Shown here piece after piece: positions 5,888-38,275 of a DNA stretch of 64,000 bases. The translations under genes and the position numbers were made by a program. The number at the start of each line of letters is the position of its first letter. Positions within the stretch are counted from its first letter, which is position 1. The stretch is from Deltaproteobacteria bacterium (lineage in GTDB: Bacteria > JAMCPX01). The stretch is taken from NCBI GenBank assembly GCA_023382265.1, contig JAMCPX010000008.1, positions 84,274 to 148,273 of the forward strand. The letters run 5' to 3'. The notes beneath the pieces are model-generated. The model saw only the letters and a list, made by a program, of their open reading frames with translations, was not told the origin of the DNA and ran no database searches.

Positions 5888-7450
5888 TCAATTCACATCG
5901 GAGATTTCAAGTATCCTGTCAATACGAAACGTTCTTGTTTCGTTACGCTCGTGGCAAAACGCCTCGATGCCCACATACTTCTTATCGAGATATGCCATCT
6001 CTCCTACAAAATGCGGCGTAATAACTCTTATGGATTTAATATCGTTATTTTTGAGGTAAACAATCTTAAGTTTTTTACCATCTTTAATGGCATTTTTTAT
6101 TAGAGCTATCTTATCATCCATGGAGCAGAGGTTATCGGACAGCCTATACTGAAAATCCGTTACAAACTTTACCACCCTCCAGTCTATAAAGATGTGCTTC
6201 TTTTCTACAGGTTTTTTTAAAACTATTCCATCAAGGCTGGTACACCTGCTAAGTGCAACATATATCTGGCCTGTGCTAAAAGTTCCCCTTCCAATATCTA
6301 TGACAACCCTTTCAAATGTCTTGCCCTGACTCTTATGAATAGTAACTGCCCATGCGAGCCTGAGAGGGTACTGTGTAAAAGATCCGACAACTTCGGATTC
6401 GATCTGTTTCTTATCCATATCGTACTGATAATTAAAAAGCTCCCACTTGTGAGGAACAACATCGACAATGTCCCCTGTTGAAAGCTCTACAGTTATAACA
6501 TCGATGTTTTCAGGATCCACGGTTATATCAGTTATCTTACCAATGCTGCCGTTTACCCACATGCCGGATGGCTCGTTGTTGAGGAGCATTACCTGAGCTC
6601 CTGCCTTTAACCGGAGTTCCATCTGAGTTGGAAGGGTTTCATCTTTAAAGTCCCCTGTTAATTCTCCCAGGTAGGTTACGGGCTCATTTTTGAGCAGCGT
6701 AAGATGATCAAGATTGATCTTATTGGCTGCTTCATTTGTTGATGTAAGCCAGATGAAAAAATCCTTCATGCTGGGATCGAAATCGGGTTTATATCTGCGG
6801 TTTAATATTTTTAATCCTTCCTCCGTTATTGAGTTATTACGAATAGTATTAAGCAGGTTGATGAAAGACTCGTCCCTCTGGCGGTAAACCTTTTCAAGCT
6901 CTATAAACTCCATATCAATCTCTTTCATTGCCCGTGCCTCGAAGAAGAAGGGGCTGTCGTACTGATGTTTAAAAACCTCTTTCTCCCCCTCTTTTACAAC
7001 AGGCGGAAGCTGGTATAAATCACCGATCAATATCATCTGAACGCCGCCAAACGGCTGGTTATGCTTGTTACCGTTGAACATAAGAAACTGAGCTATGCAA
7101 TCCATAAGATCGGCGCGTACCATTGAAACCTCATCAATGACAATTGCATCCAATTCCCTGTAAATATTATTATGTGCTTTTTTAATTTTCTTTACGGATT
7201 GAAGAGTAACCCCGGGTTTGAACCTAAAAAATGAGTGTATCGTCTGTCCTTTTACATTCAGTGCAGCCACGCCTGTAGGAGCAAGTACTACAATGTTTTT
7301 CTTTGTATTGTTACGAAAATAATCGAGAAGTGTTGATTTGCCCGTACCTGCCCTGCCTGTTATAAAGGCGTGCTTCGAGGTATTTTCCATTATATCTAAA
7401 GCTTTTTGAAACTGTTCATTTAGCTCAATGGGCTTTTTATATATTGTCAT
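5888..7450 (-). CDS. PIF1/RecD-family ATP-dependent DNA helicase with C-terminal WYL-like domain
   Basis: Has a Walker A (GRAGTGKST), the VLAPTGVAA and IDEVSMV motifs of the SF1B PIF1 family, and a C-terminal ~90 aa with a ...FCHERNETRTFRIDRILEI pattern resembling a WYL domain. Confidence 0.75.
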   Translation of the reverse strand: MTIYKKPIELNEQFQKALDIMENTSKHAFITGRAGTGKSTLLDYFRNNTKKNIVVLAPTGVAALNVKGQTIHSFFRFKPGVTLQSVKKIKKAHNNIYRELDAIVIDEVSMVRADLMDCIAQFLMFNGNKHNQPFGGVQMILIGDLYQLPPVVKEGEKEVFKHQYDSPFFFEARAMKEIDMEFIELEKVYRQRDESFINLLNTIRNNSITEEGLKILNRRYKPDFDPSMKDFFIWLTSTNEAANKINLDHLTLLKNEPVTYLGELTGDFKDETLPTQMELRLKAGAQVMLLNNEPSGMWVNGSIGKITDITVDPENIDVITVELSTGDIVDVVPHKWELFNYQYDMDKKQIESEVVGSFTQYPLRLAWAVTIHKSQGKTFERVVIDIGRGTFSTGQIYVALSRCTSLDGIVLKKPVEKKHIFIDWRVVKFVTDFQYRLSDNLCSMDDKIALIKNAIKDGKKLKIVYLKNNDIKSIRVITPHFVGEMAYLDKKYVGIEAFCHERNETRTFRIDRILEISDVN

Positions 7451-7485: not shown

Positions 7486-8877
7486 TCACTTTCCAATACA
7501 AAATTCGGAAAAGATCTTATCAAGTATATCTTCCGGCGTAATCTCACCGGTTAGCTCACTAATTGCCATTATAGCACTATCAACCTCTTCTGCTATAATT
7601 TCAGGAAAAGCCTGTTGAGCAAGTAATTCAATTGCATTTCTTAGTGCCAATTCAGTGTGTTCCATTGCTTGTTTATGTCTTTCTCTGCTTATAACAAGAT
7701 TACCCTCTATATCTGATTTTGTCTGATACAAAGAGATAGCACGTTCTAATTCATCCAGCCCCTGCTTTGTCTTTGCTGATATTGTAAATACCTGGTAAGG
7801 GCTGAATAGTGTTCTAATCCTTTTTATTTCTTCTATATCTTTACATACATCTATCTTATTAATAAGCACAATCACCTTCTGCATATCAATTCCTTGTATA
7901 ACTAAAAGCTCTTCTTCTAAGGATACTTTTTTTAAAGGATCTATTACTATTGCATTAATATCTGCCTGTTTTATCAATGTTTTTGTCATCTCAATCCCCA
8001 ACTTTTCAACAAGTTCCTCACTTTTTCTTAACCCGGCTGTATCTATCAATACAATCTTTTTACCCTGATAATTTATTGATTCCTGAATATAATCCCTTGT
8101 AGTGCCTGGATGTTCCGTGACAATCGCCCTACTCTCTCCTAACATAGCATTAAAGATACTGGATTTACCAACATTTGGCTTACCTATAAAAGCGACCTTT
8201 ATTCCTTCTTTTATTATTTTTGCGTGTTCATAACTATTTAATATATAAGCAGTCTCGTCATGAGCTGCCTGTAATATGATGCCTAATTCTAAAACCCCTT
8301 TTGGCTTTACATCTTCTTCTGGAAAATCAATCATTACTTCAAGATGTGATTTTACCTGTAAAAGCTTTTCTTTAATCCCTAGAATATACTCTGATAAAAG
8401 CCCTTTCAGATGACTCATTGCCTGCTGTCTTGAAGCTTCTGTATCAGACTTTATAAGATCCAGTACTGCCTCTGCTTGTAAAAGGTCCATCTTGCCGTTT
8501 AAAAATGCCCTTCTTGTAAATTCACCTTTTTGGGCAGGTCTTGCTCCGGCTTGTATTACCTGTTTTAAAACTGCCTGCATAACGCCGGAACTGCCGTGCG
8601 TATATATTTCAGCCATGTTTTCACCGGTATAGGTCTTCGGGCTTTTCATATATGCAAGCATTACGTTATCTATTGTTTTGCCTGATGTATCATTTATATC
8701 ACCATAATATAGTGAATGACTTTTAAAAGCTTTTACATGTTTTCTGGATTTAAATAAATTTTTTATAATGTGTAATGTAAGTTCCCCACTGATTCTAATT
8801 ATACCGATTGCCCCTTCTCCAGATGGCGTAGCAATGGCTGTAATTGTATCGCTATTAAAAAAGTCTTTTTTTTTCAT
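7486..8877 (-). CDS. mnmE: tRNA modification GTPase MnmE (TrmE)
   Basis: Has a G-domain (GKPNVGKSS), the C-terminal CIGK motif and is about 460 aa long. It is divergent from dnaA. Confidence 0.95.
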   Translation of the reverse strand: MKKKDFFNSDTITAIATPSGEGAIGIIRISGELTLHIIKNLFKSRKHVKAFKSHSLYYGDINDTSGKTIDNVMLAYMKSPKTYTGENMAEIYTHGSSGVMQAVLKQVIQAGARPAQKGEFTRRAFLNGKMDLLQAEAVLDLIKSDTEASRQQAMSHLKGLLSEYILGIKEKLLQVKSHLEVMIDFPEEDVKPKGVLELGIILQAAHDETAYILNSYEHAKIIKEGIKVAFIGKPNVGKSSIFNAMLGESRAIVTEHPGTTRDYIQESINYQGKKIVLIDTAGLRKSEELVEKLGIEMTKTLIKQADINAIVIDPLKKVSLEEELLVIQGIDMQKVIVLINKIDVCKDIEEIKRIRTLFSPYQVFTISAKTKQGLDELERAISLYQTKSDIEGNLVISRERHKQAMEHTELALRNAIELLAQQAFPEIIAEEVDSAIMAISELTGEITPEDILDKIFSEFCIGK

Positions 8878-8967
8878 TAAAAAACAAAGCGGCCTTTCAT
8901 ATTTTTTATAATCTTCATTAATAAAAACTCATAATATTGACAATGTCAATATTTGGATAAAAATTGC

Positions 8968-8995
8968 TTGACAATGCCTATAAGGGGCATAATAT
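8968..8995 (+). promoter_or_regulatory. Sigma70-like promoter candidate upstream of dnaA (TTGACA-N16-TAATAT), second copy of a tandem TTGACAATG repeat
   Basis: A -35 TTGACA sits at 8968-8973 and a -10 TAATAT at 8990-8995. A similar TTGACAATGTCAATAT element lies about 25 nt upstream. Confidence 0.35.
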
Positions 8996-9168
8996 AATTT
9001 ATGTATAATTTATGATTATCTTTATTTTTCAATAAGTTATATGGCTTTCTACAAGTTGTGGTTATGGATAATACTTATACTATATATTGGTTTTAAAAAG
9101 ATGAATTATAAATGTTTAAAAACACATAATACAGCTATATATCTAATTAAAAGATATAGCTTTTTTAG

Positions 9169-9188
9169 TTTTCCACAGGTGTGGAAAA
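9169..9188. promoter_or_regulatory. Palindromic pair of DnaA boxes (TTTTCCACA gg TGTGGAAAA)
   Basis: TTTTCCACA fits the TTWTNCACA DnaA-box consensus, and two inverted copies sit about 85 nt upstream of the dnaA start. This is the expected autoregulatory or origin site. Confidence 0.5.
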
Positions 9189-9269
9189 AGTTGTGTGTAA
9201 CATTTTTTGATTTATTCTTTGATCTCAATAAGTTACAAACTGAATTATATGTTAATGATAGGTGAACGT

Positions 9270-10574
9270 ATGAAAACATGGGAAACTATAAAACAAACGC
9301 TTATAAATTTTTATAATGATTCAAGTGTTGATCCGTGGCTAAACACCTTAAATGTAATAAGTTTTGATAATAATTCTCTTATCATTAGTGTTCCTGATCA
9401 ATTTTCTTATGATTGGATTAAAAACCATTTTTTAAATGATATAATCCGCGTAGTAAGAGATATTAATGGTAATGAAATAGAGGTATCTCTTATTTTAGAG
9501 GATGGAAAGACCGATGAAATAATTAATATTGCACCTATCAAAGATAATAAGTTTATAGACAAAGCAGCAGAGTTACGTGAAAAATATTCCTTGGAAAATT
9601 TTGTAGAAGGTGAATGCAATAAGTTTGCATTTGCTGCTGCACAGGCGGTGGCTAAGGGGCCGGGGCATACATACAATCCTCTGTTTATCTATGGTGGCGT
9701 TGGCCTTGGTAAAACTCATCTTGTGAATGCAATAGGGAATCACATAAAAAAAGAATATAAACTTTATGTTATATATGTATCTGCAGAAGCTTTTGTAAAC
9801 GATCTCGTGCACCACTTAAAAACTAACAAGATGGATAGTTTTAGGGAAACATATAGAAATTGTGATGTACTGCTGATAGATGATATAGAGTTTATATCAA
9901 ATAAAGAAAAAACGCAGGAGGAAATTTTTCATACATTTAATAAGCTCTATGAAGAAAAAAAACAAATCGTATTTACATCAGACAGATTGCCTAAAGAGAT
10001 ACCCGGTATAGAGGAAAGGCTTAGAAGTAGATTTGAAATGGGACTTATCGCCGATATCCAGGCTCCCGATGTTGAAACAAAGGTAGCTATAGTGAAGAAA
10101 AAAGCAGAACAAAATAACATTGATATAGATGATGATATAGCATTCTTTCTTGCTTATAACACATTATCCAACATTCGAGAACTTGAAGGATATTTAACAA
10201 GGCTGTCAGCTTATGCCTACCTTACTAAAACAAAATTAAATATAAACGTAGCCAAAGAGGTACTGGCAAGTGTTATTAAAAAGAAAGATAAATGGGTTAC
10301 GATAGAAGATATACAAAAAGCTATATCTATATATTTTAAGATTAAAGTGTCTGATCTGAATTCCCAAAAGAGGATGAGATATATAGCGTATCCAAGACAA
10401 ATAGCCATGTATTTGGCTAGAACTCTAACAAATGCATCATTTCCTGAGATAGGTACACAATTCGGGAATAAAGACCATTCTACAGTTATTCATTCTGTAA
10501 ATAAAATAGATAACCTGTATAAAACTGATCAAAGTGTTAAAGATGTTATTGAAAAGATCAAAAAAGGACTTTAA
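9270..10574 (+). CDS. dnaA: Chromosomal replication initiator protein DnaA
   Basis: Has the AAA+ domain (GGVGLGKTHL), the sensor motifs and the C-terminal DNA-binding domain (YPRQIAMYLAR...HSTV). The start was moved to ATG 9270 (MKTWETIKQ), which has an upstream GGTGA RBS. The ORF-track start at 9207 is an unlikely N-terminal extension. Confidence 0.95.
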   Translation: MKTWETIKQTLINFYNDSSVDPWLNTLNVISFDNNSLIISVPDQFSYDWIKNHFLNDIIRVVRDINGNEIEVSLILEDGKTDEIINIAPIKDNKFIDKAAELREKYSLENFVEGECNKFAFAAAQAVAKGPGHTYNPLFIYGGVGLGKTHLVNAIGNHIKKEYKLYVIYVSAEAFVNDLVHHLKTNKMDSFRETYRNCDVLLIDDIEFISNKEKTQEEIFHTFNKLYEEKKQIVFTSDRLPKEIPGIEERLRSRFEMGLIADIQAPDVETKVAIVKKKAEQNNIDIDDDIAFFLAYNTLSNIRELEGYLTRLSAYAYLTKTKLNINVAKEVLASVIKKKDKWVTIEDIQKAISIYFKIKVSDLNSQKRMRYIAYPRQIAMYLARTLTNASFPEIGTQFGNKDHSTVIHSVNKIDNLYKTDQSVKDVIEKIKKGL

Positions 10575-10768
10575 TAAAGTTATTTAAAACTTGTTGATAA
10601 GTATATTGTAATTATATATATGTAATTACAAACAGAAGTGTTAACACATTTTAAACTGAATTGTTTTAAAAATTTTTTATAAAAATTAAATAGATAAAAA
10701 ATATGAGTAGATTTTTAACAAACTTACTACTATGATTATTATATATTATCAAATACTAGGAGATAGTT
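10575..10768. other. AT-rich dnaA-dnaN intergenic region, candidate oriC/DNA-unwinding element
   Basis: The region is very AT-rich. It contains TGTTGATAA (reverse complement TTATCAACA, a near DnaA box). Its position between dnaA and dnaN is the most common bacterial oriC location. Confidence 0.4.
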
Positions 10769-11866
10769 ATGGAGTTTAGTATATTAAAAAAAGATTTTGT
10801 TTCCGCAATAAGTAAAGTGATCGGTGCAACAGAAAAAAAAGCAAGTATGCCGATATTATCCAATATTTTAATAAAAATAGAAAAAGATATTCTGACAATT
10901 ATAGGAACAGATCTTGAAGTTACAATTATCACTAAAATTAAGTGTAATAATATAGTTTCAGAAGGAAAAACGGTAGTACCAGCTAAAAAAATATTTGATT
11001 TTGTAAAAGAACTGCCCGAGAGTGAAATTAATATAAAAATAGAAGATGGATTGATAAATATGGTTATAGGAAAGATATCAGGTAAATTAAAAGTTTTACA
11101 AGCAGAGGACTTTCCTATGATAGAAGAGTACAAAGACGGTTTTACAAAAATTGATAACAACACTATTATGAAGACCATAGATAAAACGATATATGCTGCC
11201 TCTACTGATGAGGTTAGATACAGTTTGAACGGTATATTTTTAGAAAAATATATAAATAAATTAAGATTTGTGGCTACGGATAGTCATAGAATGGCTTTGT
11301 GTGATTTAAAAGAAGTAAATAGTATAGAAGGTTTAACAAAAGGGGTTATAATACCAAGAAAAGGCTTATATGAAATGAGAAAAATAAACAGCGATAATGA
11401 CGTTGAAATTGCTATTGATAAAAATAAAAATTTTATAGTAAGAATAGGTGATACTACAATACAGATGAGACTGTTGGATTATGATTTTCCTGATTATAAA
11501 CCTGTTATACCAAAAGAAACAAAGGTTAATATAAAAATAAATAAAAATATTTTAGCATCAGCAATAAAGAGGGCTCAATCTATATATCAGGATAAAATAA
11601 CAAGAATCATATTCAATGTTAATAATAAGACTCTTACCATAGAAAGTAGTGAGTCTGATACGGGTGAGGCAAAAGAAGAAATAGAGATAGACTACAATGG
11701 TGAACCTTTAACAATAGGCTTTAATGGAAGATATGTATTAGACTGCTTAAACACAATAGAAAGTGATTTTATAATAATTGGTTTGAATAATGATCAAAGT
11801 GTTGCAACAATTATACCGGAAGAAGATAAATTACATTATAACCTTATTATGCCTATGAGAATATAG
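10769..11866 (+). CDS. dnaN: DNA polymerase III beta sliding clamp DnaN
   Basis: Is 365 aa long with the N-terminal MEFSILKKDF...PILSNILI motif and three beta-clamp domains. Confidence 0.95.
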   Translation: MEFSILKKDFVSAISKVIGATEKKASMPILSNILIKIEKDILTIIGTDLEVTIITKIKCNNIVSEGKTVVPAKKIFDFVKELPESEINIKIEDGLINMVIGKISGKLKVLQAEDFPMIEEYKDGFTKIDNNTIMKTIDKTIYAASTDEVRYSLNGIFLEKYINKLRFVATDSHRMALCDLKEVNSIEGLTKGVIIPRKGLYEMRKINSDNDVEIAIDKNKNFIVRIGDTTIQMRLLDYDFPDYKPVIPKETKVNIKINKNILASAIKRAQSIYQDKITRIIFNVNNKTLTIESSESDTGEAKEEIEIDYNGEPLTIGFNGRYVLDCLNTIESDFIIIGLNNDQSVATIIPEEDKLHYNLIMPMRI

Positions 11867-12028
11867 GATAGTTTTATGTAAAAATAGAGTACAGCATTAC
11901 TGAATATATCTAAGGTCCGGTTTTAGATGATTATGAGATTATATTAAGATACGCAATTTAAAAAAGTAACAAAAACCATCATCCACCCCAAAAGCGAAGC
12001 AGCCAAAAAATCCAAAAATTTAATGTGG

Positions 12029-12487: not shown

Positions 12488-13363
12488 ATGGCAGAAAATA
12501 AAAAAAGTAAAATAATCGGCATTATAGGAGGGAGCGGTATGTATGAGATGGAGGGTATAAAAGGTGTTAAAGAAATACGATTAGAAACACCTTATGGGGA
12601 TCCATCGGATGCCTACATTATAGGTGAATACAATGATGCAGAGTTTATATTTCTACCGCGTCACGGCAAAGGACATCGTATACTTCCATCAGAGATAAAC
12701 TTCAGAGCAAATATTTATGGTATGAAGATGCTTGGAGTAGAATGGATAATATCTGTAAGTGCGGTAGGGAGTATGAAAGAGGATATAAAGCCGGGAGATA
12801 TTGTTATACCGGATCAGTTTATAGATTTAACAAAAAAGAGAGAATCAACCTTTTTTGGTAATGGCATTGTCTCGAGTATTTCTATGGCAGACCCTGTATG
12901 CCCTGTTTTGTCGGGAGAGCTGTATAGCGCAGGCAAAAAGCTTGGTATAACAACACACAAGGGAGGTACATATGTATGTATTGAAGGACCGCAGTTTTCT
13001 TCAAGGGCGGAATCAAAGTTATACAGACAATGGGGTGTGGATATAATAGGAATGACAAATATGCCGGAGGCAAAACTCGCACGAGAGGCGGAGATTTGCT
13101 ATGCAACGATCGCACTTGCAACAGACTATGATTGCTGGTATCAAGGTATGAAGGATGTTGAAGTGAATGAGATTGTTAAAACGATGCAAGAAAATATAGA
13201 AAAGGCGAAAAGTATTATAAAGGCAGTTATCCCTATAATTGATCATTCAAGGGTATGCTCATGTTCTCATGCACTCCGGGATAGCTTTATGACATCAACT
13301 TCACTCATCTCCGAAAAGATCAAAAAAGATTTAAAACCCATCATAGGAGATTATATAAAATGA
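12488..13363 (+). CDS. mtnP: S-methyl-5'-thioadenosine phosphorylase (MTAP, PNP/MTAP family)
   Basis: Has IGIIGGSG at the N-terminus, the phosphate-binding region, the ...GMT.MPE motif and an AGGAGG RBS. A ~40 aa C-terminal extension contains CSCSH. Confidence 0.85.
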   Translation: MAENKKSKIIGIIGGSGMYEMEGIKGVKEIRLETPYGDPSDAYIIGEYNDAEFIFLPRHGKGHRILPSEINFRANIYGMKMLGVEWIISVSAVGSMKEDIKPGDIVIPDQFIDLTKKRESTFFGNGIVSSISMADPVCPVLSGELYSAGKKLGITTHKGGTYVCIEGPQFSSRAESKLYRQWGVDIIGMTNMPEAKLAREAEICYATIALATDYDCWYQGMKDVEVNEIVKTMQENIEKAKSIIKAVIPIIDHSRVCSCSHALRDSFMTSTSLISEKIKKDLKPIIGDYIK

Positions 13364-13803
13364 AAAAAAATTTCATAAGAATATGTATATGGGCAAGTTT
13401 TATACTAACTTCATGTGCAGTTAACAGTACTACAGGCACAGTAGTAACGATTAATCAAAACAATCAAGATAGGTTTGAAGAGCAAAAGATGTTTACCGTA
13501 AACCTGATTCCGCCGGAAGGAGGTAAGTCTATCTGGGAAGGTAAGAAGTTAGAACCCCCTTACAGCAAACAGGTTTTACCTGGTAAGACATATAATGTTC
13601 AAGTAGAAACAGCGGATGGAGTTATATATGATGGCAGTATTAAGGTACTTGCAGATGGGGGTAGTATAGGGAAATATCCTGGTTATGATGTAAGACTTTT
13701 AAAATATATCAGAGGGATCATTAAACAAGAAAAACATATTTCTTTTTATCTAAACTCTCCGGCAGGCAGGCAGGTACTTTTGGTAACTTTTATATCGCAT
13801 TAA
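13360..13803 (+). CDS. Hypothetical lipoprotein
   Basis: Has a signal peptide with a lipobox-like LTSC. No recognisable domain. Its start overlaps the MTAP stop (ATGA). Confidence 0.45.
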   Translation: MKKNFIRICIWASFILTSCAVNSTTGTVVTINQNNQDRFEEQKMFTVNLIPPEGGKSIWEGKKLEPPYSKQVLPGKTYNVQVETADGVIYDGSIKVLADGGSIGKYPGYDVRLLKYIRGIIKQEKHISFYLNSPAGRQVLLVTFISH

Positions 13804-13901: not shown

Positions 13902-14300
13902 TCACTTCAGACTTTTGATATAAGCAATAATATCGTCGATCTCTATAGGACTGAGCTTACCTTTAAAAGAAGGCATGACATGTGCGGGAAAACCTTTTAC
14001 ATTATAATCGTCCGGATCAAGGATCTTGTTCTTTATAAATTTATCATCAACAACTATCTTTTCTTCTTTTCCACCTATGTTAACGAATTCTTTTTTACCA
14101 TACAAACCCTTGTAAGATGGTCCCACAAGTGTAGTACCATTGGCAGTATGGCATGCTGTACAACCTTTTTCTTGAACAATCTGTAAACCTTTTGCAGCAC
14201 TACCTTCTGCTACCTTTGCTCCCATAGCCTGAGAAACAACCGAAATTCCTGCTATAATCATTATAGCCATAAGCACTGTAAACTTTATTCTTTTTACCAT
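13902..14300 (-). CDS. Monoheme class I c-type cytochrome (periplasmic)
   Basis: Has a signal peptide, a single CTACH heme motif, the GPSYKGLYG cytochrome-c fold signature and a distal Met (HVMPSF). The start was set at ATG 14300 (MVKRIKF), which is preceded by a GGAGG RBS. Confidence 0.8.
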   Translation of the reverse strand: MVKRIKFTVLMAIMIIAGISVVSQAMGAKVAEGSAAKGLQIVQEKGCTACHTANGTTLVGPSYKGLYGKKEFVNIGGKEEKIVVDDKFIKNKILDPDDYNVKGFPAHVMPSFKGKLSPIEIDDIIAYIKSLK

Positions 14301-14381: not shown

Positions 14382-15827
14382 CTAAAACAAATATTCAAGT
14401 TTTATTGCAGTTACATCAAAATCAGACGGTGATATATTTGATGTTGGGACTTGAGCAAGTGCTGCATATTGTGCAACCCCTGGGTTATACTTCATAAAGA
14501 ATGAATGTTCCAACAGTAAATTGACATTCTGGTATGGATACCATGATAGTCCTGCAACAAGAGATTGGACATCCATATCACTTACCTGAGAGGAGCTTGT
14601 TGAAAGATACTTTACATATGCCCCATAAGTTCTCTTGTAATAATAATCTGCCATAACACCCAGGCCGTTCCTGCTCACAGAGGTACCACTGTTCGAAAAA
14701 CTGGTTCCGGAGTACTGATCTACTCCATAAAACTTACTATCATTCTCTGATTGATAAAGTACATAAAGTTCTGCAAGATTGTTGTTGGCAAGATACTGTG
14801 CCTGCAGGTCAACGCCATAGTTCGTATAATTATCAAGATAATTTGGATTTACCAGAGATGAAATAGGCTGAGTCATCCTCTCATTGCCAAAATATCCGAA
14901 TCCGCCGATTTCTACATATACATTATTAAACTCAGGTAAGTAATAAGACACGCGAACACCGGGATCAACAGTGCTTGAGCCATTGAATACCCCGGTTCCA
15001 GCCACTCCTCCCTGAACATATCCGGTCAAGGTTTGATTTTTTGTAGGATGATATGCCCCTACACACGCGTAAAGGCCGCCATCAGTAAAGTCACCCCACA
15101 TACCATATAATTCACCACCTTCTACAAATGCCGTGTTTGTATCAAGTAAGGTATTGTGTGTGCTCATGCCCATAAGTGTAGATGTTAATCCCCACATGCC
15201 AAATGTATTTGAAGGATCTGCCATACCAACCGTATCAACAGCTCTGAATCCATAGCTTAAAGTTTTCCCTGCAAATGTTGTATCTGATCCTACAAATGCA
15301 AGATCAAAGATACCTAAACCAAGGGTTCCGCCTTCATCATTAATACCTGTTAATTCAATTAATGTACCAATATGAGGACCAATCTTTCCTCCTACATATA
15401 TACTGGAGTCAGCAAGCAGGTTAAGAACATCCGTATCTCCATACCCTGAAGGATATGAAACAAAGCCCTGTCCTCCTGTCGCGATACCTCTTGGAACAAT
15501 GCCGTTGTTCCCGCCCTGCTGATTATTCCATCTGGCAACCAGTCTTGCCGACAGCATTGGAACCTTGTTGATTGCAAGTCCAGGCATGGATTTATCATCA
15601 GACTTTATCTGATCTACATAGTCTATCGTATAACCATGAAGTTTAAAATTCCTGCCAAATGGTGTTAGATGAGGGAAAACAGTGTGACACACATCACAGG
15701 CAAGACCTGTTTGTCTTGCAAAACTCGGTACTGCTTTGGCGTTTTTCGGTAAGCCGATCGTCATAACAAAGACCAACCCTGATAACACTATAACCGTTCC
15801 TAATTTACTTAAAACATTCTTTTTCAT
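14382..15827 (-). CDS. Fused monoheme cytochrome c / outer-membrane beta-barrel protein (Cyc2/Cyt572-like candidate)
   Basis: Has a signal peptide, then a single CDVCH motif about 12 aa into the mature protein. The remaining ~430 aa is rich in G/Y/S/T/N with the alternating pattern typical of beta-strands and a C-terminal ...LEYLF aromatic terminus, the outer-membrane beta-barrel signature. Confidence 0.7.
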   Translation of the reverse strand: MKKNVLSKLGTVIVLSGLVFVMTIGLPKNAKAVPSFARQTGLACDVCHTVFPHLTPFGRNFKLHGYTIDYVDQIKSDDKSMPGLAINKVPMLSARLVARWNNQQGGNNGIVPRGIATGGQGFVSYPSGYGDTDVLNLLADSSIYVGGKIGPHIGTLIELTGINDEGGTLGLGIFDLAFVGSDTTFAGKTLSYGFRAVDTVGMADPSNTFGMWGLTSTLMGMSTHNTLLDTNTAFVEGGELYGMWGDFTDGGLYACVGAYHPTKNQTLTGYVQGGVAGTGVFNGSSTVDPGVRVSYYLPEFNNVYVEIGGFGYFGNERMTQPISSLVNPNYLDNYTNYGVDLQAQYLANNNLAELYVLYQSENDSKFYGVDQYSGTSFSNSGTSVSRNGLGVMADYYYKRTYGAYVKYLSTSSSQVSDMDVQSLVAGLSWYPYQNVNLLLEHSFFMKYNPGVAQYAALAQVPTSNISPSDFDVTAIKLEYLF

Positions 15828-16116
15828 TAGCTCCTCCTTCTTAAGTTAAAAGATGACTGTTTTTATATGCTATTCAAAATTTGTGTCAACAATTTGGTTT
15901 ACAATATGCTTCGTATCCGTGGCCGATATACAGGAGAGGTTATTTGTAGAAGAATATATAAAAAACAAAGTAATCAATTATATAATATTCAAATATCTAT
16001 TGCTTAAAAATTCAAACAAGAATAAAAAAACAAAAGATAAAGAAAAACTTGACTTAATAGATTATATATAGACTTTACAATATAATATAAAAACTAATAA
16101 AGGAAGATTTTTTGTT

Positions 16117-16824
16117 ATGAATATTAAAAGGTATATAATTGCAGGATTGTTTACTACACTTATTACAACGACAGTACACGCCGGGCAAAATGCCTGTATT
16201 ACCTGCCACGAGTCTCTTGGTGGAACGATCGCCGCACCTGTTATACACTGGAAGGGCTCTATACACTCGCAAAACGGCGTAACATGTAATTCATGTCACG
16301 GTGGTAATCCTGATGTTAAAACAGGGAATATAAAATTTTTATCACCTGCTGAATTTAGTAATATACAGGCTCATGCAATGTCAAAAGCAAGCGGGTTTAT
16401 TGGTATACCATCAGGCAAAACGATGTTTGATATGTGTGGGAAATGTCATACGGATTCAGTAAATATGTATGCCAACAGTATAATGGGTGTCGCATATTTA
16501 GAAAATAAAGGCGGTCCATCATGCGCAACCTGTCATAATAGCCATGATAATGTTATTCCTGCTGTGCCGAAGGTATGTGAGCAATGCCATAAAGATATAA
16601 CGGGTTTTGATCAGATATCCCCTATGAATGTTTCCGATGCAACAATTCATGACCTTTCTATGCTAAGGATACATATCGAACAAAAGAAGGTGGAGGGTAA
16701 TAAGCTGCCCATATTCAGCAAGGAGCTCGCTTCATTTCAGATCGGATTTGTAGCATGGGGAGCAGTGCTTTTACTGTTGATAGTCTCGTTCATCATCTAT
16801 ATCGTACTCGAGAAGAGGAGTTAA
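16117..16824 (+). CDS. Pentaheme c-type cytochrome with C-terminal membrane anchor
   Basis: Has a signal peptide, five CxxCH motifs (CITCH, CNSCH, CGKCH, CATCH, CEQCH) and a C-terminal hydrophobic helix. It is the first gene of the bc-type complex operon. Confidence 0.85.
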   Translation: MNIKRYIIAGLFTTLITTTVHAGQNACITCHESLGGTIAAPVIHWKGSIHSQNGVTCNSCHGGNPDVKTGNIKFLSPAEFSNIQAHAMSKASGFIGIPSGKTMFDMCGKCHTDSVNMYANSIMGVAYLENKGGPSCATCHNSHDNVIPAVPKVCEQCHKDITGFDQISPMNVSDATIHDLSMLRIHIEQKKVEGNKLPIFSKELASFQIGFVAWGAVLLLLIVSFIIYIVLEKRS

Positions 16825-16825
16825 T

Positions 16826-17089
16826 ATGTCATTTGAGATCATTCACGAAAATAAACCATCATACTCTAAACCGGCAGGTGTTGTAATTGTATTCTTATCC
16901 CTCCTGCTTCTTGTTATGGCTGTTTTTTTTGCTTATCTGTTTATATCGGGCAAGGGTACCGACTATATAATGGGTACTATTCTTGCTTTTGAATTCTTAA
17001 TCTCGGGTATACTGCTGATTCTTTTTGCTAAATATTTTATTTCATTTAGGCACGTGGCAGAAGATCGTAAGGAGGAATTCTTATGGTAG
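16826..17089 (+). CDS. Small two-TM membrane protein (possible accessory subunit of the Rieske/cyt b complex)
   Basis: Is translationally coupled: its ATG 16826 lies directly after the upstream stop, with an AGAGGAG RBS. It is 87 aa with two hydrophobic helices. Confidence 0.5.
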   Translation: MSFEIIHENKPSYSKPAGVVIVFLSLLLLVMAVFFAYLFISGKGTDYIMGTILAFEFLISGILLILFAKYFISFRHVAEDRKEEFLW

Positions 17090-17703
17090 ATAACCATACA
17101 AATGATCCATTTGGCGACGGTAACAAAGGAATAACACGCAGGAAGTTTATTCTTAGTATAATACTTGTAGCAATAGCCGGTGCATTCGGATCCATATTAT
17201 CATTGCTTAAGGTTTTGTCACCTTCAAAAAAAGGTGCCGGATATGTATCAACCATAGTTTCGGGTGATAAGCTTTTATACGCGTCCGGGAATCAAGTTGG
17301 TTCTGTAATAAAAGCTTCTGCCATGGGGGTTGGGGACGCTGTGCTTGCATATCCTATTGGTAAAACATCTAACCCGGCAAACCTTGTGCAGCTGATTAAA
17401 TTAGAGGAAAAAGATTTTCAGCCTCCAACGGATATTAAGTTTACAGACAAGGGGTTTGTCGCGTACAGTGCAATATGTACACATCTTGGATGCACAGTTT
17501 CATGGGTTAACAATAAAAATGCGCCTACGCACTCTTACTCAGAGTGTTTTTGTCATAACAGTATTTTTAATCCGGAAAAGGGTGCAAAGGTTATTGGCGG
17601 TCCTGCACCTGTGCCGCTTGCACAAATAGGCATAAGGGTTGATAGCGATGATTCTTTAGTTTTTACTAGCGGTTTTAATGGTCCAATAGGACCACAGGTA
17701 TAA
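17083..17703 (+). CDS. Rieske [2Fe-2S] iron-sulfur subunit with twin-arginine signal
   Basis: Has an RRKFIL Tat motif plus TM anchor and the Rieske boxes CTHLGC and CFCHNS. An AAGGAGG RBS precedes it, and the start overlaps the upstream stop. Confidence 0.9.
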   Translation: MVDNHTNDPFGDGNKGITRRKFILSIILVAIAGAFGSILSLLKVLSPSKKGAGYVSTIVSGDKLLYASGNQVGSVIKASAMGVGDAVLAYPIGKTSNPANLVQLIKLEEKDFQPPTDIKFTDKGFVAYSAICTHLGCTVSWVNNKNAPTHSYSECFCHNSIFNPEKGAKVIGGPAPVPLAQIGIRVDSDDSLVFTSGFNGPIGPQV

Positions 17704-17724
17704 AAAAATAATGAGGTAACTGAT

Positions 17725-18984
17725 ATGCTTTTTGATTGGTTTGAACAAAGACTGGAACTTAAAAAATTTAAAGAAAAATATTTAACAAAAACTTTTCCAA
17801 CGCATCCTACATTTCTATTGGGAGAGATAGCTCTTTTTTCTTTTATAACCCTGGTTATAACAGGCATATTTCTCGGGTTCCTTTATGAGCCATCAACGAA
17901 GCTTACACCGCTTTTTAGTGCCATGGTTCCGGCAGCATATGCGAGTGTTGTTAAAATAGATCTTATTCCTCTCGGCATGATCATAAGGCGCATACATCAC
18001 TGGTCTGCAATGATTATGATAGCCTCTATTTTAGCACACTTATTAAGGGTTTATTTTACTTCCGCTTATAGGAAACCGCGAGAGATAAACTGGTTTATAG
18101 GACTTGCATTATTTGGTCTTTCGCTCTTTGCTGCATTTACAGGCTATCTCCTGCCATACAGCAATTTCTCTGTAACGGCTACATCTATTGGCTATTATAT
18201 AGCCAAGTCGGTACCATGGATTGGAGGCTGGGTATCAAGATTGGTATTTGCAGGAGAATTCCCTTCTGATGCAACTGTCCCAAGGTTCTTCTTTTTACAC
18301 GTCATGCTTATCCCCATACTTCTTTTAAGCCTTATAGGTTTGCACATGATGATCCTCGTAAAACAAAAGCATACAGAACCTCTTGCAAATAAATCCAAGA
18401 AAGAGGCAGAAAACGGTAAAAGACTTATTGGTATCCCAATCTGGCCTGAGCAAACCATCATCAGTGTATCTTTTTATTTCTTTTTACTGTTTATAATTAT
18501 ACTGATTGCGACCAACATACCTCTTAATCCTATAGAGGCATACGGCCCTCCTTCACCGGGAACGCCGGTTATGAGACCAGATTGGTATTTCTTAATGATC
18601 TATGGATTTTTAAAACTGATTCCGGGAGATTTGTCTTTTAGTATTCTCGGCGGCAAGTTCACACCGGAAACGATCGGCGGTGTACTATTTCCTTCTGTGC
18701 TAATATTGGCCATTATCCTTATTCCTTTTCTTGACAGAGCTAAAGAGCCTGTAAGCTACATAGAAAATCCATTACATAGGCCATTTATGACTTCAATAGG
18801 ACTTACAGGAATTACTTTTACATCAATGCTTGTAGTTGCAGGTTATATCGATGTGCTTCATATAAAGCCAAAAGCTATGCTTATATTGTTAGCAGTTACA
18901 AGTGTTTCAATGTGGGTAATCTCTTATTTCCTTTTAAGGTTTTACAATAATAGAAGAAATAACGGAGGGAACAATGTTAAATAA
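17725..18984 (+). CDS. Cytochrome b (long form, b6 plus subunit-IV-like fusion) of a bc-type complex
   Basis: Carries the RRIHHWSAMIMI...HLLR heme-ligand helix motifs, is 419 aa, and has at least 8 TM helices. Confidence 0.9.
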   Translation: MLFDWFEQRLELKKFKEKYLTKTFPTHPTFLLGEIALFSFITLVITGIFLGFLYEPSTKLTPLFSAMVPAAYASVVKIDLIPLGMIIRRIHHWSAMIMIASILAHLLRVYFTSAYRKPREINWFIGLALFGLSLFAAFTGYLLPYSNFSVTATSIGYYIAKSVPWIGGWVSRLVFAGEFPSDATVPRFFFLHVMLIPILLLSLIGLHMMILVKQKHTEPLANKSKKEAENGKRLIGIPIWPEQTIISVSFYFFLLFIIILIATNIPLNPIEAYGPPSPGTPVMRPDWYFLMIYGFLKLIPGDLSFSILGGKFTPETIGGVLFPSVLILAIILIPFLDRAKEPVSYIENPLHRPFMTSIGLTGITFTSMLVVAGYIDVLHIKPKAMLILLAVTSVSMWVISYFLLRFYNNRRNNGGNNVK

Positions 18985-19753
18985 ACCCAATATAGGTCTA
19001 TTTGTTCTATTAAGTATATGTGTGTCTTTATCAAACGCGGGCTACGCTTCACAGAACAATAATGCTCATGTAAAAAATACATGCGTTATATGCCACTCTA
19101 AAATATCGGGCGAAACCTTTGTAGGAATCAAATCGCACTCATGGGAGAATTCTATTCATCAAGAACACGGTATAACCTGTAATCAATGCCATGGTGGAAA
19201 CCCGAAGGCAATTACAACCGCAAAGGCACATATTGGTGTATTAGGTTCAAGCAATCCGGATAGCGGTGTGTATTATAAGAATATCCCAAAGACATGCGGC
19301 AGATGTCATAATAAAGAACTTTACAAGTATACGGAAAGCAATCATTTTAAAAAGCTTGAAGCAACTGGACAGGGGCCTAATTGTGTAACATGTCATGGTT
19401 CTATGGTAACAACAATATTAACGCCGGACGATATGGCAAACGTATGTGATAAATGTCATAACACAAGGATTGGTGTTTTTCCCTATATCCCCGAGAAGGC
19501 AAAGGCTGTCCTGATGTTGCTTGATACAGAAGGATCCCTTATCGCCGCAGATGAAAAGATATACAGCAGCAGTAAAGAAGATATGCAGATATTGCAAAAA
19601 GCGAAGAGCCAGTTTTCTAATGCGAAACTCGAATGGCATGCATTTGACCTGGATAAAATAACAAAATATCTTCAAAATACAGAAGAAATCCTAAAAGAGT
19701 TAAGCAAGCCTCCGGTACAAACAAGCCCGGTAAGCAAACAGCATAATAAATAA
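18974..19753 (+). CDS. Pentaheme c-type cytochrome
   Basis: Has a signal peptide and five CxxCH motifs (CVICH, CNQCH, CGRCH, CVTCH, CDKCH). Its start overlaps the cyt b stop, and a GGAGGG RBS is present. Confidence 0.85.
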   Translation: MLNKPNIGLFVLLSICVSLSNAGYASQNNNAHVKNTCVICHSKISGETFVGIKSHSWENSIHQEHGITCNQCHGGNPKAITTAKAHIGVLGSSNPDSGVYYKNIPKTCGRCHNKELYKYTESNHFKKLEATGQGPNCVTCHGSMVTTILTPDDMANVCDKCHNTRIGVFPYIPEKAKAVLMLLDTEGSLIAADEKIYSSSKEDMQILQKAKSQFSNAKLEWHAFDLDKITKYLQNTEEILKELSKPPVQTSPVSKQHNK

Positions 19754-36946: not shown

Positions 36947-38269
36947 TTGCAAAAGCTGCAAGTAAATTTTATACTGCCGCCGATGGATAGAAAGCTCTTA
37001 AATGAATACGATAAGCCTGCGAAAGAGCATTATTACATACTTTTCTTGAGCTGGGCAGGCTGGGTGTTTGACTTTTATGATCTTACACTCTACACTTTTC
37101 TCCTTATACCAATAGGTAAAGAACTTCACCTGACCAACATGCATCTTTCTTATATACTCGGCATTTCATTAGCTGCTACGGCCATCGGCGGTATACTATT
37201 TGGAGTACTTGCCGATTATTTCGGCAGGCGCAGCGTTTTGCAATGGACTATCATTACTTACAGTATCGGTACATTCTTGAGCGGTCTTGCACCGGATTTT
37301 AATTTCTTGATATTATTTAGAATAATTACCGGTATCGGTGTTGGCGGAGAATGGGCAACGGGTCAAACTTATGTGGGGGAGACGTTCCCGCCTAATGTAA
37401 GGGGCAGATTTGGGGCATTCATGCAGACAGGTGCACCGGTAGGTGTAGCTCTTGCAGCACTTGTTGGAGGGTTCTTATCTCCATTGATAGGCTGGCGTGC
37501 CTCATTTATGATTTCTGTACTCCCCGCCGTGCTTGTTATCATAATAAGAAGAAAGCTGCCCGAATCTGACTTATGGGAAGAACGCAAACGTTTGATAAGT
37601 TTAAATCAAGTATCATCGCAGGTTATAAAAGAGGAGACCGGCAATAACTTTTTAGAGCTGTTTTCCAAAAAATATGTTGGCATGTTTATAAAGGCGCTCC
37701 TGCTCGGCATATTCCTTATGTCTGCTTACTGGTTTACGTACTCATGGTTACCCGGTTACCTTTATGAACAAAGACATTTTTCAATTACGAAATCGGGTTT
37801 GTGGATGATCATTACACAAACAGGCGGTTTTATAGGTTATGGCACTTTTGGCTTTGTAGCCGACAGGCTGGGTAGAAGACCCGCGTTTACAATATACGCA
37901 TTTTTGATGGCAGCAGGACTTGTTATGATAACATTGATGTGGAGTTTTATTGCCAGTTATCCTTACATAATTCTTGTATTCATGTTTATGGTAGGTTTTG
38001 GTACTGGATTTTTTAGCGGCTATGGCCCGCTTATGTCGGAATTATTCCCTACAAAAATCCGGAACACAGCCATGGGAACTGCATTTAATCTTGCGCGGGG
38101 AATCCAGTTCTTCACACCAGTTATAATTGTTATTGTGTCAAGGTATTATGGGCTTGGCGGCGGGATATCTATTGCTGCACTTTTCGCCATACTCGTAGGA
38201 TTATGGGTATGGGTATTCCCGGAGACGAAAGGTAAAAAACTTACAGCGTTAACCCAAAAAATGGAATAG
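36947..38269 (+). CDS. MFS transporter
   Basis: Has 12 predicted TM helices and the MFS signature GRR-like motif (FGVLADYFGRRSV). Confidence 0.85.
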   Translation: MQKLQVNFILPPMDRKLLNEYDKPAKEHYYILFLSWAGWVFDFYDLTLYTFLLIPIGKELHLTNMHLSYILGISLAATAIGGILFGVLADYFGRRSVLQWTIITYSIGTFLSGLAPDFNFLILFRIITGIGVGGEWATGQTYVGETFPPNVRGRFGAFMQTGAPVGVALAALVGGFLSPLIGWRASFMISVLPAVLVIIIRRKLPESDLWEERKRLISLNQVSSQVIKEETGNNFLELFSKKYVGMFIKALLLGIFLMSAYWFTYSWLPGYLYEQRHFSITKSGLWMIITQTGGFIGYGTFGFVADRLGRRPAFTIYAFLMAAGLVMITLMWSFIASYPYIILVFMFMVGFGTGFFSGYGPLMSELFPTKIRNTAMGTAFNLARGIQFFTPVIIVIVSRYYGLGGGISIAALFAILVGLWVWVFPETKGKKLTALTQKME

Positions 38270-38275
38270 GACACA

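Follow-up and report, generated by a model that had tools for sequence, protein, structure and literature searches.

A gene for a Cyc2-like fused monoheme cytochrome-porin divergent from a Rieske/cytochrome b operon in an acid-mine-type "Deltaproteobacteria" genome

As a genetic marker for microbial iron oxidation, Cyc2 is in wider use than any other. In Acidithiobacillus ferrooxidans, whose Cyc2 belongs to Cluster 2 and is ~485 aa long, the gene is part of the rus operon (cyc2-cyc1-cox-rus) and electrons follow the path Cyc2-Cyc1/CycA1-bc1; for Leptospirillum, a path through Cyt572 and Cyt579 has been proposed. Cluster-1 Cyc2, which includes Cyc2PV-1, is found in Zetaproteobacteria and Gallionellaceae, and its hosts are neutrophilic iron oxidizers (Keffer et al. 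2021; McAllister et al. 2020). The published motif consists of AXPXFAR[Q/K][T/Y], stated to be unique to Cyc2, together with CXXCH and PXL (Keffer 2021). Cyt572, placed in Cluster 3, stands out by its unusual heme and forms a very long branch (Keffer et al. 2021). For the "cyt572-like" genes of Ca. Acidulodesulfobacterales/SZUA-79, both high transcript levels and detection of the encoded protein have been reported (Tan et al. 2019; Metallomics 2026).

In this work, we describe a cyc2-like gene found in the window, that is, the whole 64-kb stretch of DNA that was analyzed (table 1). Its reading frame starts with ATG, 5-6 nt after a strong Shine-Dalgarno sequence (GGAGGAG), and the stop codon occupies positions 14382-14384. 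The product is identical to the NCBI entry [quoted passage not shown], and an identical gene call is present in contig JAJYST010000005.1 of GCA_021793435.1, as well as in NCBI, Logan and ENA assemblies.

Table 1. Features of the cyc2-like locus, with positions in the window
Feature	Position	Strand	Evidence
Secreted monoheme class-I cytochrome c, 132 aa, CTACH, Met in HVMPSF	13902..14300	-	PF00034 E 4e-10
cyc2-like gene, fused monoheme cytochrome-porin, 481 aa	14382..15827	-	ORF and translation
Predicted 16-stranded outer-membrane beta-barrel, aa ~85-481, end ...IKLEYLF (beta-signal-like)	14385..15575	-	Predicted structure
Cyc2 signature, cytochrome domain, aa 32-54: AVPSFARQT-GLA-CDVCH-TVF-PHL	15666..15734	-	Published-motif match
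Heme c attachment site CDVCH, aa 44-48	15684..15698	-	Sole CXXCH in protein
Sec signal peptide, aa 1-32: n-region MKK, hydrophobic core, AKA cleavage site	15732..15827	-	Sequence reading and alignment
AT-rich divergent intergenic region between cyc2 and Rieske/cytochrome b operon	15828..16116	.	Sequence
Pentaheme c-type cytochrome, 235 aa, C-terminal membrane anchor; first gene of operon	16117..16824	+	Five CXXCH; PF14537, PF14522
Two-helix membrane protein, 87 aa	16826..17089	+	Weak DUF7318 match
Rieske [2Fe-2S] subunit, 206 aa, twin-arginine leader RRKF, CTHLGC...CFCH	17083..17703	+	PF00355; NF050121 QcrA-like E 2e-25
Cytochrome b, 419 aa, fused b6 + subunit IV type	17725..18984	+	PF13631 E 1e-50, PF00033, PF00032; NF050120 QcrB-like E 3e-89
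Pentaheme c-type cytochrome, 259 aa; last gene of operon	18974..19753	+	Five CXXCH; PF14522

The original prediction, made from the sequence alone, had described a Cyc2-like fused monoheme cytochrome-porin with a cleavable signal peptide, a single N-terminal CDVCH and a Gly/Tyr/Ser/Thr/Asn-rich barrel with an aromatic end, and on all of these points the description holds. The signal peptide, delimited by eye, reads MKKNVLSKLGTVIVLSGLVFVMTIGLPKNAKA and is cut after AKA32, so that V33, the first residue of VPSF..., is the mature N-terminus. The A-x-A ahead of the mature start V/I-P-S-F is kept in the alignment (A30 in 80% and A32 in 96% of the sequences), and the AlphaFold2 model has a helix at aa 3-25, in the signal peptide region. 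The protein contains three cysteines altogether; its mature form has a mass of 48.6 kDa and a pI of 4.7. It is rich in G, L, V, S, T, Y and N and ends in LEYLF, with an aromatic C-terminal residue also found in 107 of 110 homologues. At 481 aa, its length agrees with the at least 365 aa expected of the Cyc2 family.

CDVCH begins 11 residues into the mature chain and lies within a full Cyc2 signature. AVPSFARQT (aa 32-40) agrees with AXPXFAR[Q/K][T/Y], and the spacing from its R to the first heme cysteine is that of the Cyc2PV-1 peptide; PSFARQTGLAC is read as the reverse complement of positions 15696-15728 of the plus strand. PHL (aa 52-54) corresponds to PXL, with P52 conserved in 94% and L54 in 99% of the sequences, and three residues separate H48 from P52, compared with four in Cyc2PV-1. 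Altogether, the heme region is identical to the heme peptide of Cyc2PV-1, QTGAACLSCHFQTFPALNAFGR, at 13 of 22 positions. C44, C47 and H48 are invariant and exactly one CXXCH is present in each of the 110 homologues, in which P34, R38, Q39, T40, G58 and F61 are invariant as well. Heme c is predicted to be held by thioether bonds to C44 and C47, with H48 as the proximal ligand. No distal Met or His ligand is conserved across the family alignment.

The predicted barrel also has the expected number of strands: the AlphaFold2 model contains 16 long strands (pLDDT 84.8) and in fold searches best matched 16-stranded porins, OprP and OprO among them, in agreement with the OprO/OprP-like barrel that follows the cytochrome domain in Cyc2. 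Neither fold search returned a solved Cyc2 structure, and a sequence search of the PDB gave only noise (E>0.4). The general 16-stranded porins OmpF, OmpU, Omp32, VhChiP, OprP and OprO resemble the window protein in fold only, with a sequence identity of 10-14%, and they have no N-terminal heme domain. Moreover, scans of the 481-aa protein against Pfam-A and NCBIfam matched no family at E<=0.1, neither a cytochrome nor a porin model. MtrCAB, MtoAB and PioAB also carry electrons across the outer membrane, but the ~26-strand barrel and separately encoded decaheme partner that characterize MtrB, PioB and MtoB were not found for the window protein.

A word-indexed search recovered 142 homologues (E<=1e-3) and an exhaustive profile search 5738 representative clusters, defined at 50% identity. 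As a reference for Cluster 1 we used Mariprofundus/Zetaproteobacteria Cyc2 sequences, fetched via the mass-spectrometry peptides of the biochemically tested Cyc2PV-1. The family profile aligned with that of 22 Zetaproteobacteria Cyc2 with an hhalign probability of 99.7% (E 5.7e-26, 374 columns), and BLASTP gave an E value of 2e-8 to M. ferrinatatus CP-8. In view of these data, we consider it very probable that the gene encodes a Cyc2-family cytochrome-porin. Of the outcomes that the original prediction had listed as refuting it, namely no similarity to Cyc2, no predicted transmembrane barrel, or a heme motif arising from a mis-predicted start, none was observed. Homology to Cluster-1 Cyc2 runs over the full profile length, and both share the signal peptide, one CXXCH within AXPXFARQT...PXL, the 16-strand porin and a gene for a small periplasmic cytochrome c nearby. 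The identity of ~19%, however, is of inter-cluster level, which argues against placement in Cluster 1, and the window protein is ~75 aa longer (481 vs ~405 aa) and carries additional loop segments, for example aa ~101-132. The window gene also differs from Cluster 1 in its acid-mine-type source and in adjoining a Rieske/cytochrome b complex.

The close relatives of the window protein, at 43-61% identity, form a distinct clade with 57 clade-specific conserved positions and come from acid-mine-drainage MAGs, Hydrogenobaculum and Desulfurella. The MnmG of the window is 76-79% identical to proteins within an uncultured clade and at most 63% identical to anything named. Leptospirillum was not represented among the named homologues from the word-indexed search. 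Cyt572 and the "cyt572-like" genes of Ca. Acidulodesulfobacterales/SZUA-79 resemble the window gene in their published descriptions and share its acid-mine habitat; as in the SZUA-79 case, the window comes from a low-GC MAG labelled "Deltaproteobacteria", with one such gene in the region examined. In the literature searched we found no discussion of Cyc2 in Hydrogenobaculum or Desulfurella, and we know of neither as an iron oxidizer, Desulfurella being an anaerobic sulfur reducer. The close homologues in these two genera count against an Fe(II)-oxidase role.

The Rieske/cytochrome b/multiheme operon is divergent on the plus strand (16117-19753), as had been predicted. The monoheme class-I cytochrome c that the original prediction placed directly upstream on the same strand is real, but on the minus strand it lies downstream (3') of cyc2, co-directional and separated by an 81-bp gap. 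Its closest solved relative is 1w2l (E 2e-14), the cytochrome c domain of a caa3 oxidase subunit II, and by its position it corresponds to Cyc1, which makes it a candidate for the periplasmic electron acceptor. The intergenic region presumably holds the promoters of both directions. Promoter-like matches in it were no commoner than in shuffled sequence and the excess of terminator-like matches was not clear (4 vs 1.7 +/- 1.4 in shuffled sequence); with counts so near the shuffled level, we assigned no promoter or other regulatory site. Rfam identified only a tRNA in the window, and thus no rRNA of use for taxonomy.

Of 88 loci with a cyc2 homologue, 58 have a small c-type cytochrome ORF within 1 kb of it, and CXXCH occurred in 9.2% of nearby small ORFs vs 0.9% of distant ones. 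In ~40 loci of distant, mostly proteobacterial homologues, a diheme cytochrome of ~200-225 aa follows immediately downstream. Rieske/cytochrome b genes often adjoin cyc2 in the 43-61%-identity clade, although these complexes are not orthologous to that of the window (cytochrome b only 33-36% identical). Four sister MAG species have cyc2 at the end of an operon whose preceding genes encode, in order, a cytochrome c, a GltD-like Fe-S flavoprotein that has a site for NAD(P), Rieske, cytochrome b, another cytochrome c and a DoxX-like protein; the Desulfurella homologue (43% identical) lies inside a cytochrome-biogenesis/DOMON/Rieske/cytochrome b cluster. Two close homologues (P0013 and P0014) adjoin RND/OEP metal-efflux genes and not respiratory ones. 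A Bacteroidetes MAG (L001) was rejected as a case of Rieske/cytochrome b linkage, for the genes lie 7 kb off with unrelated genes between.

The resemblance to A. ferrooxidans, established by description, includes an outer-membrane monoheme cytochrome-porin of similar size in an acidophile, a periplasmic c-type cytochrome encoded next downstream and, in A. ferrooxidans, a bc1 complex that takes part in the uphill path. The downstream cytochrome is a monoheme protein of 132 aa in the window but a diheme c4 in A. ferrooxidans, and the Rieske/cytochrome b genes, adjacent in the window, form the separate petI operon in that species. Neither rusticyanin nor cox genes were found in the window.

We lean toward Fe(II) oxidation as the physiological job of the protein. 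After export, heme attachment and insertion by BAM, a heme domain of ~40 residues would sit at the periplasmic opening of the pore or within that opening, where dissolved Fe2+ entering the pore could deliver one electron to the heme. From there the electron would pass to the presumably co-transcribed 132-aa cytochrome c and then, on one branch, to a terminal oxidase; no cytochrome c oxidase gene is encoded within the 64-kb window. On the other branch it may run backwards via the adjacent Rieske/cytochrome b/pentaheme complex to the quinone pool, an "uphill" flow that is driven by the pmf and serves NAD(P)H formation. Such a scheme would follow the logic of the A. ferrooxidans path and of that proposed for Leptospirillum. 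The only oxygen reductases discussed for Acidulodesulfobacterales are bd-type quinol oxidases (Tan et al. 2019), and if the genome of the window is similar in this respect, the downhill branch is left without explanation.

The same fold and family would also suit a conduit working in reverse, in which quinol feeds electrons into the Rieske/cytochrome b/pentaheme complex, the small cytochrome c hands them to the Cyc2-like heme, and a soluble acceptor, extracellular or accessible from the pore, receives them, for instance Fe(III) or a different metal. The protein might also oxidize some soluble reductant instead of Fe(II). We regard this explanation, in either form, as rather unlikely. It would agree with the tight linkage of the gene to Rieske/cytochrome b in its clade, since the usual direction of such complexes is from quinol to cytochrome c, and with the occurrence of the gene beside such a cluster in an anaerobe like Desulfurella. 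Linkage is nevertheless no proof of outward flow, because the bc1 complex of A. ferrooxidans works in reverse, and it does so within the iron-oxidation pathway. Keffer et al. (2021) allow for additional Cyc2 functions and consider function outside the well-supported iron-oxidizer clades uncertain, especially in Cluster 3, but all three representatives tested biochemically oxidize Fe(II). Moreover, the acid-mine transcript and protein data have been read as iron oxidation in published work.

We consider a heme porin with a non-respiratory role very unlikely, whether it were to sense redox state, detoxify peroxide or metals at the outer membrane, or take up iron. An open coordination site would be allowed by the lack of a conserved distal ligand, and the metal-efflux genes beside P0013 and P0014 point in the same direction; against these stand the strong and widespread linkage of cyc2 homologues to genes for electron carriers, namely small soluble c-type cytochromes, the Rieske/cytochrome b linkage in the window, and the fact that no regulator or uptake gene adjoins cyc2 there. 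We attach practically no probability to an ordinary general porin in which CXXCH arose by chance, or to a mis-called start that created the motif. The general-porin fold and the lack of a matching cytochrome model would fit such a protein, but no Pfam porin family matches it either, and the residues of the heme site, together with the pattern PSFARQTG...P-L..FGR-FK, show little or no variation among 110 homologues that belong to many phyla, so that CDVCH is not a chance match. Nor is the motif a start-site artefact, given that it is invariant in the family and follows a canonical signal peptide and a strong ribosome-binding site. The conservation data thus effectively refute both possibilities.

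A broader proposal, which we consider unlikely, is that the acidophile-type Cyc2 subclade and the Rieske/cytochrome b complex form one hard-wired module. The operon of the sister MAGs would then couple Fe(II) oxidation at the outer membrane directly to pmf-driven reduction of NAD(P)+ or ferredoxin, with outward flow in anaerobes such as Desulfurella and the divergent arrangement of the window as a variant. Such a module may be likened to the proposed NAD(P)-linked Rieske/cytochrome b complexes of anammox bacteria and to the petI operon of A. ferrooxidans.

The window gene is an ordinary addition to a known family, because Cyt572/Cyc2-like genes have been reported in acid-mine "Deltaproteobacteria" since 2019; transcript and protein evidence accompanies those published genes, and current understanding is unchanged. 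It also illustrates an annotation gap, as a family of at least 5,700 representative clusters at 50% identity has no Pfam-A or NCBIfam model. Naming this "hypothetical protein" as a member of Cyc2 places an uncultured acid-mine lineage among the candidate iron oxidizers. The added value is modest and comes from the context, that is, a subclade common to acid-mine MAGs, Hydrogenobaculum and Desulfurella that recurs beside Rieske/cytochrome b genes, which suggests a testable wiring from an outer-membrane heme to the quinone pool.

The ATG of the cyc2-like gene follows a GGAGGAG Shine-Dalgarno sequence, and the gene was called in three public assemblies, including NCBI GCA_021793435.1 (contig JAJYST010000005.1); the NCBI product name is 'hypothetical protein M1381_01785 [Deltaproteobacteria bacterium]'. 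The encoded protein starts with a typical Sec leader (MKKNVLSKLGTVIVLSGLVFVMTIGLPKNAKA), after which the mature protein, of 48.6 kDa and acidic (pI 4.7), begins with VPSFARQTGLACDVCH. Its sole CXXCH is found at aa 44-48 (CDVCH), and the chain is rich in Gly, Ser, Thr, Tyr and Asn and ends in ...IKLEYLF. Exactly one CXXCH was present in all 110 sequences of our family alignment, 107 of which have an aromatic last residue. A chance occurrence of the motif was ruled out by the invariance of C44, C47 and H48 across this alignment. The original prediction had read the signal peptide, single CDVCH, composition and LEYLF end correctly, and the divergent Rieske/cytochrome b/multiheme operon that it reported is indeed present. 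The monoheme class-I cytochrome c that it described was also found, although downstream in the direction of transcription and not upstream as had been stated.

Features of the window, in window positions
Feature	Position	Strand	Description
PIF1-like helicase	5888-7450	-	fused to a C-terminal WYL domain
Origin neighbourhood	~7500-12000		mnmE, mnmG, dnaA (9207-10574), dnaN (10769-11866)
147-aa ORF	13360-13803	+	convergent with the small cytochrome gene; lipoprotein-like leader (…ILTSC); no family match
Small cytochrome c	13902-14300	-	monoheme class-I, secreted, 132 aa; CTACH, Met in HVMPSF, PF00034
cyc2-like gene	14382-15827	-	ATG-started ORF, 481 aa
72-aa gene	15853-16071	+	in public annotation; within the AT-rich divergent intergenic region
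Divergent operon	16117-19753	+	pentaheme cytochrome (235 aa), membrane protein (87 aa), Rieske (206 aa, Tat leader), cytochrome b (419 aa), pentaheme (259 aa)
GC-rich stretch	38001-43073		GC 0.50-0.51 vs ~0.38 for most of the window; GT2 glycosyltransferase, 1036-aa MMPL-like membrane protein with C-terminal methyltransferase fusion, lipid-A-acyltransferase-like gene

The best-conserved region of the family is the N-terminus, which reads A-x-A followed by V/I-P-S-F-A-R-Q-T-G-x-x-C-x-x-C-H-T-V-F-P-x-L-T-x-F-G-R-x-F-K-L-x-G-Y. Keffer et al. (mBio 2021) recognise Cyc2 by AXPXFAR[Q/K][T/Y] before CXXCH, stated as unique to Cyc2, by PXL after it and by a 16-stranded, OprO/OprP-like porin, to which FeGenie adds the heme motif and a length of at least 365 aa. 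The window protein carries AVPSFARQT, CDVCH and PHL in this order, and its computed barrel has 16 strands. Mass-spectrometry peptides of the biochemically tested Cluster-1 protein Cyc2PV-1 (Keffer Table S1), used as the query, retrieved Zetaproteobacteria Cyc2, among them the proteins from the isolates Mariprofundus ferrinatatus, M. aestuarium and M. micogutta. An alignment of the Cyc2PV-1 heme peptide QTGAACLSCHFQTFPALNAFGR and QTGLACDVCHTVFPHLTPFGR of the window protein has 13 identities and one gap, and in BLASTP the window protein matched M. ferrinatatus Cyc2 at E 2e-8. Of the profile comparisons that the original prediction had named as checks, the one with Cluster 1 gave a match: hhalign aligned the window family with 22 Zetaproteobacteria Cyc2 at a probability of 99.7% and E 5.7e-26, over 374 columns covering residues 1-442 of the window protein. 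Signature and profile alignment both support the proposed cytochrome-porin of the Cyc2 type, and we regard membership in the Cyc2 family as nearly certain. The identity to Zetaproteobacteria Cyc2 (~19%) is at the level found between clusters (15-23%, vs 26-53% inside Cluster 1; Keffer Fig. S7), so that within the family the protein probably lies outside Cluster 1, the candidates being Cluster 2 (A. ferrooxidans type) and Cluster 3 (Leptospirillum Cyt572 type).

Whatever the lineage, the iron-gene HMM tools that are now in routine use should pick up this protein. None of the Pfam-A and NCBIfam models or PDB sequences matches it, and precomputed Pfam domains were found in 0 of the 120 homologues listed. 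An exhaustive profile search, which scanned 1.84 billion representatives, recovered at least 5738 representative clusters (50% identity) at E<=1e-3, of which 732 reached E<=1e-30; despite this size the family has no model in Pfam-A (2025) or NCBIfam (r20), and its database entries are named 'hypothetical protein' or 'cytochrome C'.

Among the matches listed, homologues split into about 44 clusters at 43-61% identity and, after a sharp gap, the rest at 32% or less. The close group in these matches is made up of sequences from MAGs of the acid-mine type, which bear the labels Deltaproteobacteria, Bacteroidetes or Kryptoniota, and is also found in Hydrogenobaculum sp. Y04AAS1 (HY04AAS1_0319) and Desulfurella. 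It is characterized by 57 positions conserved at 90% or more and rare outside, and by additional loop segments, e.g., at aa ~101-132. One member, 48% identical, bears the JGI product name 'iron:rusticyanin reductase', the name by which Cyc2 is known as an enzyme. The 90%-identity cluster of a 491-aa Cyc2 homologue (P0011) also holds 54-aa Methylobacterium 'ribosome modulation factor' proteins, which look like a clustering or look-up artefact of the protein collection.

The small cytochrome c gene lies 81 bp downstream of the cyc2-like gene on the same strand, and the closest solved relative of its product is the cytochrome c domain of caa3 oxidase subunit II. Pairing of cyc2 homologues with a small cytochrome c is general: such an ORF was found within 1 kb of the homologue in 58 of 88 loci, where CXXCH occurs in 9.2% of nearby small ORFs vs 0.9% of distant ones. 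Distant homologues, most of which carry a Proteobacteria label (Burkholderiales, Steroidobacteraceae, unclassified Alpha- and Gammaproteobacteria MAGs), nearly always have a diheme ORF (two CXXCH) of ~200-240 aa directly 3', within 30-340 bp; some 40 loci (L005, L013-L078) show this order. This order resembles cyc2-cyc1 (diheme c4) of A. ferrooxidans, whereas the partner in the close clade is monoheme.

Linkage to Rieske/cytochrome b genes repeats in the close clade, with complexes that are non-orthologous (cytochrome b 33-36% identical to that of the window). In four sister MAG species (L089, 364-7428; L091; L093/L094; L095/L096), with Cyc2 57-61% identical, cyc2 ends a co-directional operon made up of a monoheme cytochrome c (121-123 aa), a GltD-like Fe-S flavoprotein (~650 aa; Fer4_20, Pyr_redox_2, NAD_binding_8 and two Fer4 domains), Rieske (175-178 aa), cytochrome b (438 aa), a c-type cytochrome (314-424 aa) and a DoxX-like protein (~130-141 aa), whose position is taken by one or two small unassigned ORFs in the operons of homologues P0003 and P0010. 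The arrangement calls to mind the petI operon of A. ferrooxidans, as well as the NAD(P)-linked Rieske/cytochrome b complexes that anammox bacteria are proposed to have. In the anaerobic sulfur reducer Desulfurella, for which the literature searched contained no mention of Cyc2, the gene of a 43% identical homologue (L086/L087, 7001-15398) is followed by those of a 97-aa monoheme cytochrome c, a 210-aa protein without assigned function and a two-component system (histidine kinase and response regulator) and, further on, by ResB/CcsA cytochrome biogenesis, DOMON protein, Rieske and cytochrome b genes. Of these partners, the Hydrogenobaculum locus has the small cytochrome only, and two further close homologues lie near metal-efflux genes. 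Among distant homologues, Rieske/cytochrome b genes occur within 8 kb in only one of ~76 loci. The translation of the 72-aa gene in the divergent intergenic region is Lys/Ile/Asn-rich, of low complexity and without a family match, suggesting a spurious call.

Within window aa 33-70 of the 110-sequence alignment there is no conserved distal heme ligand, H48 being the only invariant His and no Met being conserved; the closest conserved residues that might serve as one are K62 (99%), Y66 (93%) and H64 (67%). Taking the A. ferrooxidans model and the Leptospirillum proposal as a template, Fe2+ would enter the pore and reduce the single heme, from which the electron would pass to the periplasmic cytochrome c. 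It might then proceed to an oxidase whose gene lies elsewhere or, with the pmf as driving force, run backwards via the neighbouring Rieske/cytochrome b/pentaheme complex to the quinone, for NAD(P)H.

The physiological role of the protein is, on balance, somewhat more likely than not Fe(II) oxidation. Each of the three Cyc2 representatives assayed biochemically is an Fe(II) oxidiser, the source of the window looks like an acid-mine community, and the 'cyt572-like' genes of Ca. Acidulodesulfobacterales from acid mines rank within the top 20 transcripts, with Cyc2 protein detected as well. Caution comes from the 64-kb window, in which no cytochrome c oxidase or other terminal oxidase was found, and from the lack of conservation of a distal heme ligand. 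To our knowledge, Hydrogenobaculum and Desulfurella, hosts of close homologues, are also not known as iron oxidisers, and the authors of the Cyc2 family (Keffer et al.) hold function to be uncertain away from well-supported iron-oxidiser clades. The main rival to iron oxidation, a conduit that runs outward or on another substrate and is fed by the Rieske/cytochrome b complex, seems to us rather unlikely.

MnmG of the window has a tight set of relatives at 76-79% identity, including 'Deltaproteobacteria bacterium', all others being at 63% or less, which places the genome in an uncultured lineage. Its GC content (~38-40%) and the acid-mine co-occurrence are in keeping with Ca. Acidulodesulfobacteriota (SZUA-79; GC 29-43.5%) as a candidate phylum. 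Outside the cyc2 locus and the divergent operon, the window is made up of housekeeping DNA round the replication origin (dnaA, dnaN, mnmG, mnmE, fatty-acid synthesis); the cumulative GC skew reaches its minimum at 8-10 kb, and the cyc2 locus lies ~5 kb from the presumed origin. WYL, the domain fused to the helicase, senses ligands and often occurs in defence or regulatory settings, and the GC-rich stretch may be an envelope-lipid cluster gained by horizontal transfer. Descriptions of equivalent genes from acid-mine 'Deltaproteobacteria' date back to 2019, so that the window gene adds to a known type, and the clade-specific wiring of cyc2 to Rieske/cytochrome b complexes is the less ordinary aspect of the locus.
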